Positions 5,206 to 14,952 of a stretch of 16,591 bases of DNA are shown one piece after another. The notes under the pieces were generated by a model, which did no database searches, was not told the DNA's origin, and worked only from the letters and a program-made list of their open reading frames with translations. The translations under genes and the position numbers were made by a program. The stretch's first letter is position 1; every line of letters starts with the position of its first letter. This DNA is from a virus (Duplodnaviria; Heunggongvirae; Uroviricota; Caudoviricetes): the IMG/VR virus record IMGVR_UViG_2718217897_000003. The stretch is one strand, 5' to 3'.

Positions 5206-5477
5206 GTATTCGTATTGAAATTGGCGAACGTTATGTCGTTACCAGTGACAGCTTTCAGTTTATTCTCCACGAGAAAAAGAGAGCGGAAAGCGGTAAAAAC
5301 GCCGGTCAGGAATGGCTGGCGGTGGTTGGTTATTACCCGAAATTAAGCCAGCTCGTTTCCGGCCTGATGCATCACGATATTCTTACCGGAAGCGCAAAGT
5401 CTTTTGCTGATTTAAACGCGCAGGTTGAGCAACTCAGCAAGCGTTGTTCAGAGGCTTTTGGCTCATATGGCCGTTAA
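5202..5477 (+). CDS. Hypothetical early protein, P2 orf83 position (91 aa)
   Basis: ATGA overlap with the orf82 stop; its 3' end overlaps the A start by 11 nt. Confidence 0.7.
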   Translation: MSIRIEIGERYVVTSDSFQFILHEKKRAESGKNAGQEWLAVVGYYPKLSQLVSGLMHHDILTGSAKSFADLNAQVEQLSKRCSEAFGSYGR

Positions 5478-7749
5478 AGCCTCCGGGCGTTTTGTCCCTC
5501 CGTCAGCATTTGCCGCAGGCACCGGTAAGACGTTTACCGGTGCTTATGCATGGAACGCGCCACGCGAGGCCGTCGGGCGCGAAAGACCCCTTACACGTGA
5601 CGAGATGCGTCAGGTGCAAGGTGTTTTATCCACGATTAACCGCCTGCCTTACTTTTTGCGCTCGCTGTTTACTTCACACTATGACTACATCCGGCGCAAT
5701 AAAAGCCCGGTGCACGGGTTTTATTTCCTCACATCCACTTTTCAGCGTCGTTTATGGCCGCGCATTGAGCGTGTGAATCAGCGCCATGAAATGAACACCG
5801 ACGCGTCGTTGCTGTTTCTGGCAGAGCGTGACCACTATGCGCGCCTGCCGGGAATGAATGACAAGGAGCTGAAAAAGTTTGCCGCCCGTATCTCATCGCA
5901 GCTTTTCATGATGTATGAGGAACTCAGCGATGCCTGGGTGGATGCACATGGCGAAAAAGAATCGCTGTTTACGGATGAGGCGCAGGCTCACCTCTATGGT
6001 CATGTTGCTGGCGCTGCACGTGCTTTCAATATTTCCCCGCTTTACTGGAAAAAATACCGTAAAGGACAGATGACCACGAGGCAGGCATATTCTGCCATTG
6101 CCCGTCTGTTTAACGATGAGTGGTGGACTCATCAGCTCAAAGGCCAGCGTATGCGCTGGCATGAGGCGTTACTGATTGCTGTCGGGGAGGTCAATAAAGA
6201 CCGTTCTCCTTATGCCAGTAAACATGCCATTCGTGATGTGCGTGCACGCCGCCAGGCAAATCTGGAATTTCTTAAATCGTGTGATCTCGAAAACAGGGAA
6301 ACCGGCGAGCGCATCGACCTTATCAGTAAGGTGATGGGCAGTATTTCTAATCCTGAAATTCGCCGGATGGAGCTGATGAACACCATTGCCGGTATTGAGC
6401 GTTACGCCGCAGCAGAGGGTGATGTGGGGATGTTTATCACGCTGACCGCGCCGTCAAAGTATCACCCGACACGTCAGGTTGGAAAAGGCGAAAGTAAAAC
6501 CGTCCAGCTAAATCACGGCTGGAACGATGAGGCATTTAATCCAAAGGATGCGCAGCGTTATCTCTGCCGTATCTGGAGCCTGATGCGCACGGCATTCAAG
6601 GATAATGATTTACAGGTCTACGGTTTGCGTGTCGTCGAGCCACATCACGACGGAACGCCGCACTGGCATATGATGCTTTTTTGTAATCCGCGCCAGCGTA
6701 ACCAGATTATCGAAATCATGCGTCGCTATGCGCTCAAAGAGGATGGCGACGAAAGAGGAGCCGCGCGAAACCGTTTTCAGGCAAAACACCTTAATCGGGG
6801 CGGTGCTGCGGGGTATATCGCGAAATACATCTCAAAAAACATCGACGGCTATGCACTGGATGGTCAGCTCGATAACGATACCGGCAGACCTCTGAAAGAT
6901 ACTGCCGCGGCTGTTACTGCATGGGCGTCAACGTGGCGCATCCCGCAATTTAAAACGGTTGGTCTGCCGACAATGGGGGCTTACCGTGAACTACGCAAAT
7001 TGCCTCGCGGCGTCAGCATTGCTGATGAGTTTGACGAACGCGTCGAGGCTGCACGCGCTGCCGCAGACAGTGGCGATTTTGCGTTGTATATCAGTGCGCA
7101 GGGTGGGGCAAATGTTCCGCGCGATTGCCAGACTGTCAGAGTCGCCCGTAGCCCGTCGGATGAAGTTAACGAGTACGAGGAAGAAGTCGAGAGAGTGGTC
7201 GGCATTTACGCGCCGCATCTCGGCGCGCGTCATATTCATATCACCAGAACGACGGACTGGCGCATTGTGCCGAAAGTTCCGGTCGTGGAGCCTTTGACTT
7301 TAAAAAGCGGCATCGCCGCGCCTCGGAGTCCTGTCAATAACTGTGGAAAGCTCACCGGTGGTGATACTTCGTTATCGGCTCCCACACCGACTGAGCATGC
7401 TGCAGCGGTGTTAAATTTTATAGATGAAGGGATTCTAAGTTGGACCGAGCCAGGCATTATGAAGGTACTTAGAGACTTATTGAGTAATGAACTGAAATGC
7501 AGTAATCGTTCACAGCAGAGCTTTACTCCTTTCAATGGTCGAAGCTACTTTCCTGCCCCATCCGCCCGGTTGACAAGGCAGGAGAGAAAGACTATCCCGA
7601 AAATTAAGGTTCTTCTTGCACAAAGTGACATTCAGGCTAGTTATTGGGAGCTTGAAGCTCTCGCTCGCGGAGCTGTTTTGGATTTTGGGCATAAGCGTTT
7701 TAAATTTGATACCGATATCGACTTTTTTGACAGACAGCGTGAGTGGTAG
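5467..7749 (+). CDS. A: Replication initiation protein A (rolling-circle initiator, 760 aa)
   Basis: Protein starts MAVKASGRFVPPSAFAAGTGKTFTGAYAWNAPREAVGRERPLTRDEMRQ at the ATG at 5467 and carries an HxH-like motif (TPHWHMMLF) and a tyrosine-rich GYIAKYISKN region typical of gpA-family initiators. The ORF-track start at 5425 is an extension. The last 110 codons or so are AT-richer than the rest. Confidence 0.92.
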   Translation: MAVKASGRFVPPSAFAAGTGKTFTGAYAWNAPREAVGRERPLTRDEMRQVQGVLSTINRLPYFLRSLFTSHYDYIRRNKSPVHGFYFLTSTFQRRLWPRIERVNQRHEMNTDASLLFLAERDHYARLPGMNDKELKKFAARISSQLFMMYEELSDAWVDAHGEKESLFTDEAQAHLYGHVAGAARAFNISPLYWKKYRKGQMTTRQAYSAIARLFNDEWWTHQLKGQRMRWHEALLIAVGEVNKDRSPYASKHAIRDVRARRQANLEFLKSCDLENRETGERIDLISKVMGSISNPEIRRMELMNTIAGIERYAAAEGDVGMFITLTAPSKYHPTRQVGKGESKTVQLNHGWNDEAFNPKDAQRYLCRIWSLMRTAFKDNDLQVYGLRVVEPHHDGTPHWHMMLFCNPRQRNQIIEIMRRYALKEDGDERGAARNRFQAKHLNRGGAAGYIAKYISKNIDGYALDGQLDNDTGRPLKDTAAAVTAWASTWRIPQFKTVGLPTMGAYRELRKLPRGVSIADEFDERVEAARAAADSGDFALYISAQGGANVPRDCQTVRVARSPSDEVNEYEEEVERVVGIYAPHLGARHIHITRTTDWRIVPKVPVVEPLTLKSGIAAPRSPVNNCGKLTGGDTSLSAPTPTEHAAAVLNFIDEGILSWTEPGIMKVLRDLLSNELKCSNRSQQSFTPFNGRSYFPAPSARLTRQERKTIPKIKVLLAQSDIQASYWELEALARGAVLDFGHKRFKFDTDIDFFDRQREW

Positions 7750-7784
7750 TTGAAAAAACGGTTGAACGGGGTAACAATATGTTA

Positions 7785-7814
7785 TTGTTGAGGAATTGTT
7801 TGTTATGGTTTAAT
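7785..7814 (+). promoter_or_regulatory. Candidate sigma70-like promoter for the cargo operon (-35 TTGTTG 7785-7790, -10 TTTAAT 7809-7814), overlapping a palindrome
   Basis: Hexamers with 18-bp spacing about 25 bp upstream of the 7838 ATG; palindrome AACAATA-tgt-TATTGTT at 7773-7789. Pattern match only. Confidence 0.3.
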
Positions 7815-7837
7815 TTTTATACACGGCAGAAAAGCAT

Positions 7838-9061
7838 ATGAGCATGGTTGAATGGATAAGCCACGAGAAAAAAGATAGCCTGATACTATTTGTACATGGA
7901 TTAAATGGTGGTTTGGAAACATGGAACTTTAATAAAGAAATTTCATTTCCAAAACTATTAGCAGAAGATGAAGATATTAGCAACGTATTTGATATTGCAT
8001 GTTTCAATTATTTTACTAAATTCACACAAACGTATGCTAAAACGTCAGGATTCTTGGCTCGTATTTTCTTTAAGAAAAATAAGTTAGAGAGAAATTTACC
8101 AACTGATGAAATAGCTGAGTTATTGTATACTGAGATTAGAGTAACACTAAGTGATTACTCTCGAATTATAATAATCGCCCATAGTATGGGGGGGTTAATA
8201 TCAAAAAATCTAATTCTAAAAAAAGTTGAGCATGAGGAACAATCTAATATAATTGGATTCATTTCGTTAGCAGTCCCTCACTTTGGTGCTAAATTAGCGA
8301 ATATAACTTCAATGGTATCTTCAAATGCTCAGTTAGTAGATCTTGGATTGTTAAGTGAAGCGACTGATACATTGAATAGGCGCTGGATAAATTGTAGCAA
8401 AAAACTTCCTATCACTAGATATGTTTATGGATCTCATGACACTATAGTCGATAAAAAAAGCGCATTACCGATGGATAGTGAACGACATAACTCAATTGCA
8501 GTTAATGAAGGGCATAGCTCAATTTGCAAGCCCGAAAATAGCTCGTCTACAGTGTTTGTTGCGGTAAAGCAATTTATTCAGCAGATAAATTTAGAAGCAC
8601 CCAAGAAGATTTGCGTTGAGCGTTTTTCTGATGATAAACAATATGATAATGAGTATTTCGTCTTAAAAATGATTGTCGCAGATATACATCAGGATATCGC
8701 TCTGCATGCAAAGGAATATTATTATAATGCTGAGCTTGCGAGAAATATTTTTACGAGTGATTACGATAGAAAACAACTTGGTCATTTGTATTCTAAAATA
8801 AGGGAGATTTACCAGGAAGAGTATGAGCAATACATTGCAAATTCAATTTCCCCAGATAAATTTATTGCTGCTGTTCATAGACGAATAACCCAGGAGGATA
8901 AGTCGTCGTTAGATTCTCTTATAAAAAGTTTGGAAACGATACATAAGAAAGGAATGTTGCATCAACTGGCTAACAAAAATGACAGGGATATTGTCTGGTC
9001 ATCTGAAACCAGCGTAGAAACTTTGGAGCAATTACGGCGAGGTAATCATGAAGAAAAATAA
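7838..9061 (+). CDS. Cargo protein 1: lipase-like alpha/beta serine hydrolase with C-terminal helical domain (407 aa), candidate defense effector
   Basis: AT-rich ORF. Oxyanion-hole-like HGLNGG (res 20-25), nucleophile elbow AHSMGG (Ser116, the pentapeptide of Bacillus lipase A), candidate acid Asp201 (YGSHDTIVD) and His226 (NEGHSSI), in the canonical order. The C-terminal 150 residues or so are helical and K/E-rich. The stop overlaps the next gene by 14 nt. Confidence 0.75.
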   Translation: MSMVEWISHEKKDSLILFVHGLNGGLETWNFNKEISFPKLLAEDEDISNVFDIACFNYFTKFTQTYAKTSGFLARIFFKKNKLERNLPTDEIAELLYTEIRVTLSDYSRIIIIAHSMGGLISKNLILKKVEHEEQSNIIGFISLAVPHFGAKLANITSMVSSNAQLVDLGLLSEATDTLNRRWINCSKKLPITRYVYGSHDTIVDKKSALPMDSERHNSIAVNEGHSSICKPENSSSTVFVAVKQFIQQINLEAPKKICVERFSDDKQYDNEYFVLKMIVADIHQDIALHAKEYYYNAELARNIFTSDYDRKQLGHLYSKIREIYQEEYEQYIANSISPDKFIAAVHRRITQEDKSSLDSLIKSLETIHKKGMLHQLANKNDRDIVWSSETSVETLEQLRRGNHEEK

Positions 9062-9560
9062 CTTGCCGTATATACCTCTTGATGAAGAGTATAGTTTGAA
9101 TTTTGCTATGCTTGCCATTGCTATATCTATATTATCTCATAGCAAAAAAGGAGTGTTGTCATTAGATATTAATAAAATACAAATTTTTATGTATCTGATA
9201 AAAAATCCATCAAAAATTGATTGTGCTCTTACAGTTTCGGGGAAAAAGCCTGCTTGTGTCGAGTCCCAGTTAACTTATACAATAAAGAGTTTTTCATCAA
9301 ATGTAGATATCTTATTCGACAATTCCAAAGTGAAATATCTTATAAAAATTATGTCATTGCGGGGATTGCTCTCAGCTGAGAAAAAAAATAATGAGAGTGT
9401 TAAATTATTTTTATCTGAAAAAGGTAAGGAATTTGCTAGCTCATTGACTGATGGATATTTTAAAGAAATAAAACGACTAGCCGAAGCATTGTTACCGCTA
9501 CAAGCATTGCCTACCTCTAAGTTAAACTCTGTTATAAACAAAGTCTTCAAGGAGAAATGA
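9048..9560 (+). CDS. Cargo protein 2: small 170-aa protein of unknown function, possible adaptor or kleisin-like middle component
   Basis: ATG at 9048 lies inside the 3' end of gene 1, and ATGA overlaps gene 3 at 9557-9560, indicating translational coupling in one operon. AT-rich; no motif recognised by eye. Confidence 0.7.
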   Translation: MKKNNLPYIPLDEEYSLNFAMLAIAISILSHSKKGVLSLDINKIQIFMYLIKNPSKIDCALTVSGKKPACVESQLTYTIKSFSSNVDILFDNSKVKYLIKIMSLRGLLSAEKKNNESVKLFLSEKGKEFASSLTDGYFKEIKRLAEALLPLQALPTSKLNSVINKVFKEK

Positions 9561-11527
9561 TGAAATCATATCTCAATATCAATAGTTTGATTCTTGTTGG
9601 CGTTCGTAAAAACTACGTCACTACTTTTTATAAAGGTCTCAATGTTATCTACGGAGACTCTGACACAGGTAAGTCAAGTATTCTGGAGTTTATTAATTAT
9701 CTTTTAGGTGCTAGTTCTATAGATTTAGCAGATGAAATAAAAACATCAGTAAACTATGCTGCTCTTGAAGTAGTGATCAATGATACTGTATTCACAATCG
9801 TAAGAGATATCTATGATCATAAAAAATCAATAGAAGTTTATCGTTGTAAGTTTGATGATTTACATAAACACTTTCCGAAAAAATACGCCCCTAATTATAG
9901 CCCCTTATCAAATGTTGATGGCGTTTTTTCGGAGTTTTTACTTGATAGTCTTAATTTTCCAAAAATTGAAATTAAGGTGTCTCCTTCTAAAGCACATTCA
10001 CAGATGCGCAGGTTAAGCTTTAGAAATATATATAAATTTGTTTATGTAAGTCAGGATGATATTGGTAGTAAATCATTCTTACGATTGGAGGATTGGTCCC
10101 GTTACGCATTTACGAAAGAAGTTTTTAAATACATGTTCAATGTGTTGGATGAAAGCATCGCCAGACTCCAAGGTGAAATATCTGCAAAAAGTAGTTTAGT
10201 AACGGAACTAAATAAGAAGTATCAGATAATATCTGAATTTCTTCGCGATACAGACTATGAAACAATTGAATCAATTGATGATGAGATTAATAGGATAGAT
10301 CTTATTTTAGAAGAACTTGTTGCAGGTTTGTCTGCTCTCGATAAAAATATGAAAGCGGATTCCATGCAGTATACAGAATTGAAAGATGCCCACAATTTTA
10401 TTTCGCTTAAATACAAGGAGTGCATATTAAATATTAGCACGCTTGAGGATAAGATTGATAAATATTCGCGGTTAAAAAATGACTATGATAATGATATTGA
10501 AAAACTCAAAGCGATTAAAACAGCAAATTCTCGCATTGGTGTATTGGATAAGGAAGTATTTTCCTGTCCGATCTGTGATAGCCACATTAAAATAGATGAT
10601 TCCGATTTTCCATTTGAAATTTCATCAGAAAAAGATCTTAATGAAGAGTTGAATTCACTTAGTCGACGTAGACGAAATATTAATGACATGATCTCAGAAA
10701 TGTCATTTAAATTAAAAAAAGAATCTGGTTATAAAAAAGAATTAGATGAACAACTTGACGAGTTGAGAGAGTTAATTGACGAAGAAAGCCAGTCAATGAT
10801 TACACCATTCTTGACTCAGAGAGATTTTTATATTAAAGAGATATCAAAAAACGAGAAGGTTAGGGAGCAGTTAGTAAAAGATTTGAAGGTTAGAAACCAG
10901 CAAGAGGAACTGCTTGAAAAGCATCAGGTACTGATAAAAGATATTGAAACATTAACTGAACGCTTGGATGCGTTAAAGAAAAACGCACCTAGTATGGAAG
11001 GCATTTTACAAGGTTTAGGTGATAGATTTAGTCAGTATTTGAAGGGTATTAATATCAAAAACAGAACGGGGATAAAAATCTCTGAAAGATATTACACCCC
11101 TGTTATAAGAGGAAAGGAATATTTTAAAATAACGTCCGGAGGTTTGAGAACTATTTCTTCTATTGGGTATCTTTTGTCTATTCTTGATTATGCAATAGAC
11201 CATAATGTTAACCATCCTTTACTTTTGATATTTGATACGGTTGGTAAATATTTAGGGAAACAGACCAAGGAAAAATACTCAAAAGAAACTCTTGCAGTCG
11301 AGGATGACCTTGAGGGGATGTCAGACCCGATGAAGTATCAAAATATTTATGAGCAACTATTGAATACAGTTCAAAAAGCAGAAAGAAAAAATGTTCCGTG
11401 CCAGATTATATTAGTTGATAATGATTTGCCTAATTCGTTTTCTACTGGTGAACTTTCGAATATTATCGCTCATTATAGCTCGGTTGGTGAGGATGGTTTG
11501 CCTTTAGGTTTAATTGATGACCTTTAA
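9557..11527 (+). CDS. Cargo protein 3: SMC/Rad50/SbcC-like ABC ATPase with coiled coil and CxxC hook (656 aa)
   Basis: N-terminal Walker A GDSDTGKSS (K39), Q-loop-like VSQDD (Q166), a charged heptad-rich segment of about 350 residues with a single CPIC (C337/C340) near its middle, signature-like TSGG (526-529) and Walker B-like LLLIFD (555-560). Confidence 0.8.
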   Translation: MMKSYLNINSLILVGVRKNYVTTFYKGLNVIYGDSDTGKSSILEFINYLLGASSIDLADEIKTSVNYAALEVVINDTVFTIVRDIYDHKKSIEVYRCKFDDLHKHFPKKYAPNYSPLSNVDGVFSEFLLDSLNFPKIEIKVSPSKAHSQMRRLSFRNIYKFVYVSQDDIGSKSFLRLEDWSRYAFTKEVFKYMFNVLDESIARLQGEISAKSSLVTELNKKYQIISEFLRDTDYETIESIDDEINRIDLILEELVAGLSALDKNMKADSMQYTELKDAHNFISLKYKECILNISTLEDKIDKYSRLKNDYDNDIEKLKAIKTANSRIGVLDKEVFSCPICDSHIKIDDSDFPFEISSEKDLNEELNSLSRRRRNINDMISEMSFKLKKESGYKKELDEQLDELRELIDEESQSMITPFLTQRDFYIKEISKNEKVREQLVKDLKVRNQQEELLEKHQVLIKDIETLTERLDALKKNAPSMEGILQGLGDRFSQYLKGINIKNRTGIKISERYYTPVIRGKEYFKITSGGLRTISSIGYLLSILDYAIDHNVNHPLLLIFDTVGKYLGKQTKEKYSKETLAVEDDLEGMSDPMKYQNIYEQLLNTVQKAERKNVPCQIILVDNDLPNSFSTGELSNIIAHYSSVGEDGLPLGLIDDL

Positions 11528-11655
11528 TACTATACATGCATTTTTTTGAATTAGATTGCATGTGGATAATGAGTCTATTTAGTGAAGGGAAGGTTTTGTG
11601 TGACGTGACTTTCGATAAAATTCAACCGCATTAAAACCGCCCCATGAAGCGGGCG

Positions 11656-11674
11656 GGCGAGGCGGGGAAAGCAC
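11656..11674. other. cos site (19-nt cohesive-end sequence GGCGAGGCGGGGAAAGCAC) with flanking G/T-rich repeats
   Basis: The 19-mer matches the P2 cohesive end as I recall it, lying between the end of the rightward operon and the 3' end of Q, where cos sits in a P2 prophage. G/T-rich reiterated motifs follow at about 11700-11815. Confidence 0.65.
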
Positions 11675-11842: not shown

Positions 11843-12814
11843 TCAGCCGTTGTCAGTGTCCAGTGAGTAGTTTTTAAAGCGGATGACCTCCTGACCGAGC
11901 CAGCCGTTTATCTCACGGATCCTGTCCTGTAACGGGATAAGCTCATTGCGGACAAAGACCTTTGCCACTTTCTCAATATCACCCAGCGACCCGACGTTCT
12001 CCGGCTTGCCGCCCATCAACTGAAAGGGGATGCGGTGCGCGTCCAGCAGGTCTGCGGCACTGGCTTTTTTGATATTAAAAAAATCGTCCTTCGTCGCCAC
12101 TTCACTGAGCGGGATAATTTTAATGCCGTCGGCTTTTCCCTGTGGGGCATAGAGAAACAGGTTTTTAAAGTTGTTGCGGCCTTTCGACTTCACCATGTTT
12201 TCGCGAAGCATTTCGATATCGTTGCGATCCTGCACGGCATCAGTGACGTACATGATGTATCCGGCATGTGCGCCGTTTTCGTAATACTTGCGGCGGAACA
12301 GCGTGGCCGACTCATTCAGCCAGGCAGAGTTAAGGGCGCTGAGATATTCCGGCAGGCCGTACAGCTCCTGATTAATATCGGGCTCCAGCAGGTGAAACAC
12401 GGAACCGGGCGCGAAGGCTGTCGGTTCGTTGAAGGACGGCACCCACCAGTAAACATCCTCCTCCACGCCACGGCGGGTATATTTTGCCGGTGAGGTTTCC
12501 AGTCTGATGACCTTACCGGTGGTGCTGTAACGCTTTTCCAGAAACGCATTACCGAACACCAGAAAATCCAGCACAAAGCGGCTGAAATCCTGCTGGGAAA
12601 GCCACGGGTGCGGGATAAACGTTGAAGCCAGAATATTACGTTTGACGTAAATCGGTGAGCTGTGATGCACGGCAGCACGCAGACTTTTTGCCAGACCGGT
12701 AAAGCTGACCGGTGGCTCATACCATCTGCCGTTACTGATGCATTCGACGTAATCCAGAATGTCACGGCGGTCGAGTACCGGCACTGGCTCACCATGCTGA
12801 AAAATCAGCTTCAT
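11843..12814 (-). CDS. Q: Portal protein Q (323 aa as encoded here; 5' end abuts a deletion junction, possibly N-terminally truncated)
   Basis: Minus-strand ORF with host-like GC content in the expected place and orientation next to cos. From memory P2 Q is about 344 aa, so about 20 codons may be missing. Sequence directly upstream of its ATG is lysB-derived rather than gene P. Confidence 0.8.
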   Translation of the reverse strand: MKLIFQHGEPVPVLDRRDILDYVECISNGRWYEPPVSFTGLAKSLRAAVHHSSPIYVKRNILASTFIPHPWLSQQDFSRFVLDFLVFGNAFLEKRYSTTGKVIRLETSPAKYTRRGVEEDVYWWVPSFNEPTAFAPGSVFHLLEPDINQELYGLPEYLSALNSAWLNESATLFRRKYYENGAHAGYIMYVTDAVQDRNDIEMLRENMVKSKGRNNFKNLFLYAPQGKADGIKIIPLSEVATKDDFFNIKKASAADLLDAHRIPFQLMGGKPENVGSLGDIEKVAKVFVRNELIPLQDRIREINGWLGQEVIRFKNYSLDTDNG

Positions 12815-13075
12815 GTTGCGCTCACCAGGGCAGACAAAAACGAGCTGGCGCAGGTGGCACTGCGTCAGGAACTGGAAAACGCCGCGAAGCGTGAAGCTCA
12901 GCGCGAGAAAACCATCACGAGATTACTCAATGAAAACGAAGATTTCCGCCGCTGGTATGGCGCTGACCTGCCTGATGCTGTGCGCCGGTTGCACCAGCGC
13001 CCCGCCTGCACCGACGCCAGTGATTGTCCACAACGCCTGCCCGAAAGTGAGTCTTTGCCCGATGCCGGGCAGTGA
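12815..13075 (+). pseudogene. lysB: lysB remnant (Rz-like spanin, 3' portion only)
   Basis: The frame ending at 13075 encodes ...ALTRADKNELAQVALRQELENAAKREAQREKTITRLLNENEDFRRWYGADLPDAVRRLHQRPACTDASDCPQRLPESESLPDAGQ, but upstream of about 12815 the same frame is antisense to Q. There is no lysB start or N-terminal transmembrane region. The 5' boundary is approximate (plus or minus 30 nt). Confidence 0.6.
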
Positions 13076-13220
13076 CCCGCAGACGAACGGCGATTTAAGT
13101 GCCGATATCCGGCAGCTTGAGAACGCGCTGGCACGCTGTGCCAGCCAGGTAAAAATGATTAAACACTGTCAGGACGAAAACGATGCTCAAACCCGACAGC
13201 CTGCGCAGGGCGCTGACTGA
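12930..13220 (+). CDS. lysC: LysC (Rz1-like outer-membrane lipoprotein spanin, 96 aa), embedded in the lysB frame region
   Basis: MKTKISAAGMALTCLMLCAGCTS has a signal peptide and lipobox Cys; the rest is proline-rich. Embedded out of frame in lysB as in P2. Likely non-functional without full LysB. Confidence 0.7.
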   Translation: MKTKISAAGMALTCLMLCAGCTSAPPAPTPVIVHNACPKVSLCPMPGSDPQTNGDLSADIRQLENALARCASQVKMIKHCQDENDAQTRQPAQGAD

Positions 13221-14166: not shown

Positions 14167-14952
14167 TTATGAGTGATTTTTATTTGATGCTTTGTATTCT
14201 ACAACCTTCTTATTGGCGTAAAGGAATTTTGTATATGACAGGAATATAACCAGACCTGAAATGAAATAGATGAGGGATATTATTAATAATGCTTTTTTTT
14301 GGCTGTTATTATCTTTAATTTCCTGACTTAACCATTCCGAGTCCTCCTCGTTTAGCTGTAAGAGCTTATTGCAGGCGATCTCAGGAAGTGTGTCTTTTAT
14401 AAATATGTTTCGTAGCCTCTTGCAATCGGCAAGGCTATAAGTTTTATTGAATTCAACTGTTTTATTGTTGAAGGATAAAAGAACTTTGTCACTATAAACA
14501 TAGTACATCATATTTTTATATGGTATGCCTATGGCATCTCTTACTATAGCGGATTGTTTGTTGTGTATATAACATGCGAAGAGAATATAAATAATGCTGG
14601 ACAGAATTACAATTATTGTTTTAATTATGTGTGGTGGTTTTGTTATGTCACCCCAGAAGCGAGTAAGAAAAAAATACGATGTTTTTAGTTTTCCATCAAT
14701 CAGCCCCTGCTGTATCATTCTCACATCTTCGATGCCTGATACATTGATTCCGTTAATTATTTTAAATAGTTGAATGTCGCGCCATTTTTTGTCGAGCATT
14801 TTTAACTTTCTGTCTGAATACTCAAAATTGAAATGATGTGCAATAAACCTCATAAGATTACTTTTACCAAAGGTAATAAATGTTAATGCTATTAATAAAA
14901 ATAGATACAAAGAGATAAACCACCACGCATTAGTCACATTATCACTGAACAT
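14167..14952 (-). CDS. AT-rich cargo gene: 261-aa integral membrane protein (about 3 predicted TM helices), unknown function, in the S-V slot (P2 orf30 position)
   Basis: ATG complement at 14950-14952 with GAGGAG 8 nt upstream on the minus strand. Hydrophobic segments WWFISLYLFLLIALTFITF, IIVILSSIIYILFACYI and ALLIISLIYFISGLVIFLSY. Opposite strand to the flanking tail genes. Confidence 0.8.
   Translation of the reverse strand: MFSDNVTNAWWFISLYLFLLIALTFITFGKSNLMRFIAHHFNFEYSDRKLKMLDKKWRDIQLFKIINGINVSGIEDVRMIQQGLIDGKLKTSYFFLTRFWGDITKPPHIIKTIIVILSSIIYILFACYIHNKQSAIVRDAIGIPYKNMMYYVYSDKVLLSFNNKTVEFNKTYSLADCKRLRNIFIKDTLPEIACNKLLQLNEEDSEWLSQEIKDNNSQKKALLIISLIYFISGLVIFLSYTKFLYANKKVVEYKASNKNHS

Follow-up and report, generated by a model that had tools for sequence, protein, structure and literature searches.

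A probable lipase-type Lamassu anti-phage system in the gpA-cos-gpQ hotspot of a defective P2-like prophage

Described Lamassu systems and the locus

In the Lamassu family of anti-phage systems LmuB and usually LmuC are constant, whereas the effector LmuA varies and may be a nuclease, SIR2, a hydrolase, a protease or a monooxygenase; members occur in prophage hotspots according to the authors who extended the family. The classification of ABC-three component (ABC-3C) systems sorts LmuA proteins by their C-terminal domains (CTD1-12) and the middle components into types MC1-8. Here we describe an AT-rich three-gene operon at positions 7838-11527 of a stretch of 16,591 nucleotides of viral DNA (IMG/VR record IMGVR_UViG_2718217897_000003, Caudoviricetes), which as a whole is called the window throughout. 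Very probably its three genes make up a complete Lamassu (ABC-3C) anti-phage system, one with a zinc hook, a lipase effector and an LmuB of the short kind, and a defective P2-like prophage carries it as cargo in its gpA-cos-gpQ defence hotspot.

Lamassu systems of the lipase type have been described before. A 2025 preprint refers to 'LmuA proteins with predicted lipase effector domains, belonging to CTD8 and CTD9', and uses AlphaFold3 predictions to extend to them a model in which LmuA is sequestered, released and then oligomerises. Haudiquet et al. (PNAS 2025, PMC12663957) present the Lipase effector as specific to short Lamassu, provide Lamassu_Lipase and LmuA_Lipase detection profiles, and describe Escherichia coli Lamassu Ec-Lipase, a short system with a zinc hook which protects against lambda-vir at low induction. 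They also report that LmuB K42A and LmuA H215A both weaken the defence, that H215A alone abolishes the toxicity of overexpression, and that 7 of 9 predicted interface mutants are inactive. The locus analysed here is a member of this already described subtype (lipase LmuA with CTD8/CTD9, the Lamassu_Lipase class) and is already annotated as ABC-3C: its RefSeq names are 'ABC-three component system protein', 'ABC-three component system middle component 4' and either 'AAA family ATPase' or 'SMC family protein'. An ABC-3C system with CTD8 and MC4 (PF20284/PF20290) is the same system under an older computational name. With Ec-Lipase the locus has in common a CxxC zinc hook, an LmuC, a lipase LmuA with a Ser-Asp-His triad and, to go by its length, probably a short LmuB.

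Two type II Lamassu systems of the nuclease type, Vibrio cholerae DdmABC (9NY5/9NYG) and Salmonella enterica LmuACB (9HQU/9HQX), resemble the locus in their three components and in an LmuB composed of a head, an antiparallel coiled coil and an apex. They likely follow the same logic, in which the effector is held back until DNA is sensed and its release leads to abortive infection. Their effector, however, is a Cap4 nuclease that cuts DNA, whereas the present locus encodes a serine alpha/beta hydrolase, and their LmuA-CTD and LmuC families differ from CTD8 and MC4. The Vibrio Lamassu clade has in addition lost the zinc hook, whereas CPIC is invariant at the present locus.

The operon and its three proteins

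The operon comprises the following genes:

7838-9061, plus strand: lmuA, effector, 407 amino acids
9048-9560, plus strand: lmuC, small middle component of the MC4 type, 170 amino acids
9557-11527, plus strand: lmuB, SMC/Rad50-like ABC ATPase, 656 amino acids

All three products match their Lamassu models in PADLOC, namely LmuA (PDLC03851, 1.3e-108, residues 3-406), LmuC (PDLC03869, 2.6e-52, residues 3-169) and LmuB (PDLC03862, 1.2e-233, residues 2-656, with ten further LmuB models also matching). LmuC is, moreover, recognised by Pfam as ABC-3C middle component 4 (MC4, PF20290) at 4.5e-27, with 95 bits against a gathering threshold of 28.1. Open reading frames of such length in DNA of 33% G+C (GC) are far beyond chance, and each of the three has a strong family match. 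The set of LmuA, LmuC and LmuB is thus complete and intact, and it is under purifying selection. A preliminary description of the same DNA, made from its letters alone, had singled out an effector, a small middle protein and a coiled-coil ABC ATPase encoded by three tightly coupled genes with overlaps of 14 and 4 nucleotides, and had named Lamassu as the closest family. PADLOC, Pfam and an AlphaFold2 (AF2) model agree with this architecture, the gene coordinates carry both overlaps, and the family name is borne out by the PADLOC matches and by a Foldseek search in which the best matches are LmuB chains. It had also called the genes AT-rich, with AT-biased codons relative to the backbone, and rightly so: the operon has a GC content of 33.0% and a GC content at third codon positions (GC3) of 28.5%, compared with 52% and 53%, respectively, for gpA and a GC content of 53% for the portal gene on the other side. 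GC content falls and rises again at the operon ends.

The 14-nucleotide overlap lies at the lmuA/lmuC junction. The lmuC/lmuB junction reads ATGATGA, so that the overlap is 4 nucleotides from the first ATG and 1 nucleotide from the second (9560). This second ATG is the lmuB start in some RefSeq records and is favoured by most homologues; the Walker A lysine stands at position 38 in 94 of 113 LmuB homologues, which also favours it. The start of lmuA may be Met1 (7838) or Met3 (7844), the latter being conserved in at least 97% of homologues. These alternative starts of lmuA and lmuB shift the numbering of mutants by 1-2 residues and leave the reading of the operon unchanged.

In LmuA the following elements were located:

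residues 1-255 (approximately): alpha/beta-hydrolase (lipase-like) domain
7895-7900, plus strand: oxyanion residues HG 20-21
8183-8185, plus strand: nucleophile S116 in AHSMGG
8438-8440, plus strand: D201
8513-8515, plus strand: H226

The N-terminal part of LmuA matches DUF676 (2.8e-9), PGAP1, Abhydrolase_1 and LCAT in Pfam, alpha/beta-hydrolase families that cover residues 10-208. The C-terminal part matches ABC-3C CTD8 (PF20284) at 9.2e-36 over residues 265-389 (8630-9004), with 123 bits against a gathering threshold of 27.6. Across 95 aligned homologues of 42-94% identity, H20-G21, H115-S116-x-G118-G119, D201 and H226 are invariant. In the AF2 model the N-terminal domain has a predicted local confidence (pLDDT) of about 90 except in two lid-like insertions at 61-85 and 150-171, and HG20-21, S116, D201 and H226 follow strands beta3, beta5, beta7 and beta8, which are the canonical positions of the oxyanion residues, nucleophile elbow, acid and base. 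A sequence profile of LmuA found lipases and esterases only among PDB sequences; a single-sequence search of PDB sequences gave no match, and there was no sequence match to solved Lamassu chains. Judged from conservation and the modelled fold, LmuA appears to be a competent Ser116-Asp201-His226 hydrolase joined to an ABC-3C CTD. The Pfam families, the invariant triad and the model all support the preliminary description in its view that a lipase-like alpha/beta hydrolase takes the place of a nuclease. The residues it had picked out for mutation, S116 here and K39 and C337/C340 in LmuB, are present and invariant in homologues.

LmuB carries these elements:

9653-9676, plus strand: Walker A, G33-S40 (G33-x4-G38-K39-S40), with K39 at 9671-9673
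residue 166: Q-loop residue, Q166
residues 199-326 and 358-498 (approximately): coiled-coil arms in the AF2 model
10565-10576, plus strand: zinc hook C337-P-I-C340, at the coiled-coil apex
11132-11152, plus strand: signature TSGGLRT, residues 526-532
residues up to 561: Walker B LLLIFD560, a deviant form in which T561 takes the place of the Glu

In alignments of 77-113 homologues Walker A including K39, Q166, S527-G-G-L-R-T, D560 and C337-P-x-C340 are invariant, and C337-P-[IVL]-C340 is so in 114 LmuB sequences. A deviant Walker B has also been reported for Salmonella LmuB (2025 preprint). The AF2 model (pLDDT 86) consists of an N-terminal head, helices 199-326, a short CxxC hairpin, helices 358-498 and a C-terminal head, the CxxC lying near the midpoint (about residue 348) between the coiled-coil arms. 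When this model was compared with the PDB using Foldseek, the best 8 matches were Lamassu-type LmuB chains or a close relative (9uxh, 9hqx, 9hqu, 9a6c, 9nyg, 9ux7; E 1.7e-21 to 3e-14), at an identity to solved LmuB chains of only about 15%; Rad50, SMC, JetC, condensin, MukB and Smc5/6 ranked below them. The similarity of the third protein to SMC/Rad50/ABC ATPases, on which the first reading of the DNA had staked its proposal, is therefore present, with LmuB found first and Rad50 and SMC after it. A sequence profile of LmuB reached 9hqu_A at 1.7e-11, Rad50 at 1.8e-4 and 9ny5 at 0.013 in the PDB; a single-sequence search of PDB sequences gave no match. A published table lists 627 amino acids for a short and 781 for a long LmuB, beside which the length of the present protein, 656 amino acids, would fit the short class. 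From its motifs and model LmuB would be a competent ABC ATPase with a zinc hook.

Lamassu has been proposed to descend from Rad50-Mre11/SbcCD complexes, with which LmuB shares the character of an SMC-like ABC ATPase with a CxxC zinc hook, the DNA-end sensor of those complexes, and which supply its secondary structural matches. Some databases accordingly call LmuB homologues 'exonuclease SbcC' or 'Rad50', and weak NCBIfam/Pfam matches to SMC, Rad50 and RecF exist. Such observations would suit an operon without a defence role, in which an SbcC/Rad50-like DNA-repair ATPase stands by chance beside an unrelated lipase and a small regulator, but we give this explanation next to no chance of being correct. 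The NCBIfam and Pfam matches are all far below curated cut-offs (14-25 bits against 567-1000 for Rad50/SMC in NCBIfam), and the window contains no gene for an Mre11/SbcD nuclease partner. The families to which the middle protein and the CTD of LmuA belong are specific to ABC-3C systems, and the three overlapping genes are found together, on mobile elements, in different phyla. The coiled coil is much shorter than that of Rad50-Mre11/SbcCD, with LmuA and LmuC as partners in a mobile-element setting. The family matches, the gene order conserved elsewhere and the structural ranking, in which Lamassu LmuB chains stand above Rad50, effectively refute a DNA-repair SbcC operon.

Other defence systems with related ATPases were also considered and rejected. 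LmuB had only marginal PADLOC matches to JetC (partial, 0.0016), GajA, PtuA and AriA. Wadjet was set aside on this partial JetC match, on the lack of JetA, JetB and JetD genes, and on JetC structures ranking below LmuB and Rad50. Gabija, PARIS and Septu-type ABC ATPases matched at the level of the P-loop only.

Prophage setting, distribution and selection

Around the operon the window holds the following features:

5467-7749, plus strand: gpA, P2-type replication endonuclease and left border of the hotspot (RefSeq start; the mechanical open reading frame begins at 5425), matching phrog_91 with 1112.8 bits and called 'replication endonuclease' in RefSeq
7750-7837, plus strand: spacer upstream of lmuA, 88 nucleotides, AT-rich, 32% GC
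11656-11674, plus strand: P2-type cos cohesive-end sequence, right side of the hotspot, an exact 19-mer match
11843-12814, minus strand: portal gene Q, right border of the hotspot, 323 amino acids, matching phrog_68 with 564.8 bits over profile positions 23-343 of 344
12813-13217: LysC

The whole window is 100% identical to part of the chromosome of E. coli H1827/12 (NZ_CP013031.1). It runs from host yegS and yegR through a P2-type integrase, repressor, cox, early genes and gpA to the operon, and from there through cos, Q and lysB/lysC to R, S, V and W. The 19-mer GGCGAGGCGGGGAAAGCAC, the cohesive end of P2, occurs exactly and once in the window, at 11656-11674, and an exact match was found in 0 of 200 shuffles. 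P2-like phage genomes align to the query at 11620-11660 only, and the aligned part lies at the end of their records or close to it. The shortened Q (323 amino acids) runs directly into lysB/lysC sequence, and the terminase, scaffold, capsid, capsid-completion, holin and endolysin genes, which lie between Q and lysB in P2, are missing from the prophage in the window. The prophage, which is P2-like and occupies the yegR/yegQ site, is therefore defective. Its tail region is truncated too in H1827/12, where the element ends at ogrK/yegQ.

The gpA-gpQ interval beside cos is an anti-phage cargo hotspot, which in P2 holds old and tin (Rousset et al. 2022). The operon sits in this same slot, between gpA, which ends at 7749, and cos and portal gene Q, and it is unrelated to old, tin and other gpA-gpQ cargo in its proteins and mechanisms. 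Its position and composition uphold the earlier suggestion of horizontally acquired cargo in the tin/old slot. A repeat search returned short, chance-level AT-rich matches only, with neither flanking repeats nor insertion-sequence ends found about the cassette, and an Rfam scan of the whole window found no RNA family.

A second AT-rich island (33-38% GC) lies between tail genes S and V, the position of orf30 in P2. Its open reading frame (14167-14952, minus strand) encodes 261 amino acids with three long hydrophobic, transmembrane-like stretches and matches phrog_2407, a family with no function assigned; it has no Pfam match and no PADLOC match. This island could be further acquired cargo.

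The operon is found in 96 of 5,426 complete E. coli genomes. Twelve copies have at least 99% identity and come from E. coli B, ATCC 11303, AS19, REL606, drug-selected B derivatives, 'strain C (cow's milk)' and H1827/12; the identity reaches 100% for the operons of E. coli B, ATCC 11303 and AS19 and 99.9% for that of REL606. The remaining copies are about 97-98.6% identical and mostly from O157:H7. As the adjacent gpA segment is matched in about 1,611 E. coli genomes, some 6% of such P2-like elements carry the cargo. No BL21 record appears among the 12 copies of at least 99% identity or among the genomes that best match the neighbouring gpA segment, and BL21 strains thus appear to be without the prophage segment. 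Among 372 LmuA homologues (E <= 1e-5), the best 120 all have CTD8 and nearly all have DUF676 or PGAP1 as well, and they are mostly from Gammaproteobacteria.

The order of lipase-CTD8, MC4 and SMC-like protein (about 655-668 amino acids) is kept in four other settings, and an MC4 gene between lmuA and lmuB is retained in 5 loci, including those of Pseudomonas, Methylomonas, Yersinia and O157. The Pseudomonas aeruginosa copy adjoins TraG- and DtrJ-type conjugation genes and so belongs to a conjugative element; the Methylomonas copy is chromosomal; the Yersinia copy lies between an integrase and AlpA/DUF3987 genes, a P4-like satellite layout; and the O157:H7 copies lie, intact, in P2-like prophages. 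In O157:H7 EC4115 the operon is 97% identical and occupies the same slot of an intact prophage, followed by full-length portal, terminase, scaffold and capsid genes.

That prophages, satellites and conjugative elements all carry the cassette raises the question of its main target. The same machine might, like Vibrio DdmABC, be directed mainly at plasmids or at rival elements of the P2/P4 type, in a form of inter-element warfare. The Lamassu system DdmABC acts on plasmids as well as phages, and systems of the P2 hotspot can exclude related P2-like phages (Rousset et al. 2022). The validated lipase-type system, however, was scored on phage lambda-vir, and the sequence does not tell a plasmid trigger from a phage trigger, so that this alternative differs in emphasis and not in mechanism. 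We consider it possible, though not probable, and retain the anti-phage reading.

Compared with the O157:H7 copy, the ratio of nonsynonymous to synonymous substitution rates (dN/dS) is 0.13 for lmuA, 0.21 for lmuC and 0.11 for lmuB, with no stop codons, and the genes of the operon are therefore under purifying selection. Their dS of 0.05-0.10 is similar to that of gpA (0.09), and they have diverged in step with the prophage backbone. The one damaged B-type copy is that of REL606, in which a 2-bp TG insertion (window 9196) splits lmuC, and RefSeq shows a 50-residue 'hypothetical protein' and a truncated MC4. In the other B-lineage genomes and H1827/12 lmuC is intact. REL606, the ancestor of the long-term evolution experiment, is thus probably a natural Lamassu knockout.

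Upstream of the operon, the spacer holds a weak sigma-70-like match (TTGAAA-17-AACAAT, 7750-7778). A promoter/terminator scan returned fewer promoter-like sites than shuffled sequences did, with no convincing promoter for the operon, and this match is therefore a mere candidate. The spacer also contains a 7-bp inverted repeat, AACAATA-TGT-TATTGTT (7773-7789), which overlaps the weak -10-like element and may serve as an operator or may have arisen by chance in such AT-rich DNA. The want of a strong promoter, the loss of the prophage genes between Q and lysB, and the REL606 insertion, which indicates that loss of function is tolerated in the laboratory, would all be expected if the operon were an intact but silent passenger in a decaying prophage, for example through H-NS silencing of its 33%-GC DNA, leaving the host without a phenotype. 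We regard this as unlikely. Values of dN/dS of 0.11-0.21 together with intact motifs argue for ongoing selection, the operon is undamaged in the O157 copies and in 11 of the 12 B-type ones, and the defence genes of defective P2/P4 elements have been reported to be nearly identical to those of intact ones.

Several points nevertheless weigh against a functional lipase-type Lamassu system in this prophage. The prophage is defective, and its operon may be transcriptionally silent in the host. The CTD of LmuA is modelled with low confidence, and LmuC showed no sequence link to solved LmuC chains, whether a single sequence or a 5-sequence profile was used. The fold of LmuA also matches generic esterases, lipases and thioesterases, and a 'lipase acting on the membrane' is for this reason not established. 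The case for defence by the present copy would draw on the related E. coli lipase system and on other Lamassu subtypes, and the former is probably a different (sister) lineage: compared by residue numbering only, Ec-Lipase has K42 and H215 where the present locus has K39 (or K38) and H226, and among 116 full-length homologues and the query the catalytic His of LmuA lies at 221-228 in all but a few and never at 215. Finally, a Lamassu variant 'missing a known effector' from a P4 hotspot, described as similar to Ec-Lipase, gave no protection against 28 phages, from which it follows that activity can depend on phage or context.

Proposed mechanism and meaning for phage hosts

If the operon works as the structures of other Lamassu systems and the genetics of Ec-Lipase would lead one to expect, LmuB would form a dimer held together at the ATPase heads and at the CxxC zinc hook, and the two LmuB subunits and LmuC would hold a single LmuA inactive by way of CTD8, as the solved nuclease-type Lamassu complexes suggest. 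During infection, the LmuB/LmuC sensor would meet phage DNA ends or replication intermediates, and an ATP-dependent change would then free LmuA, by analogy with work on Vibrio and Salmonella Lamassu. Freed LmuA may self-associate, whereupon the Ser116-Asp201-His226 hydrolase, whose catalytic apparatus is predicted from conservation and fold, would turn active. It would then cleave an ester substrate, and we speculate that a membrane phospholipid is the most plausible one; a literature search found no paper that defines the substrate of a lipase-type LmuA. The infected cell would presumably die or stop growing before phage release, that is, by abortive infection.

A bolder version would combine three claims: that the lineage is distinct from Ec-Lipase, that its hydrolase has a specific ester or thioester target, and that the copy in E. 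coli B is silenced but functional. Jointly these are rather improbable. Under the second, the target could be a lipoprotein, a lipid carrier or an acylated factor, attacked once the LmuB/LmuC complex releases the hydrolase. Under the third, the silenced copy could influence the range of phages able to grow on B strains, REL606 being the natural lmuC knockout.

To conclude, we describe an intact operon that is very probably a lipase-type Lamassu system. Neither the family nor its lipase subtype nor the hotspot is new, the locus had been annotated already, and the finding carries little weight as a discovery. It has some practical value all the same. Since many O157:H7 strains and the E. coli B lineage (B, ATCC 11303, AS19, REL606) have the system, it belongs to the background immunity of phage hosts in wide use, and REL606 with its frameshifted lmuC provides a ready-made isogenic control. 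As a compact, intact and natural E. coli operon, it offers a convenient model for the way in which an SMC-like complex that senses DNA activates a lipase, and for what that lipase cleaves.

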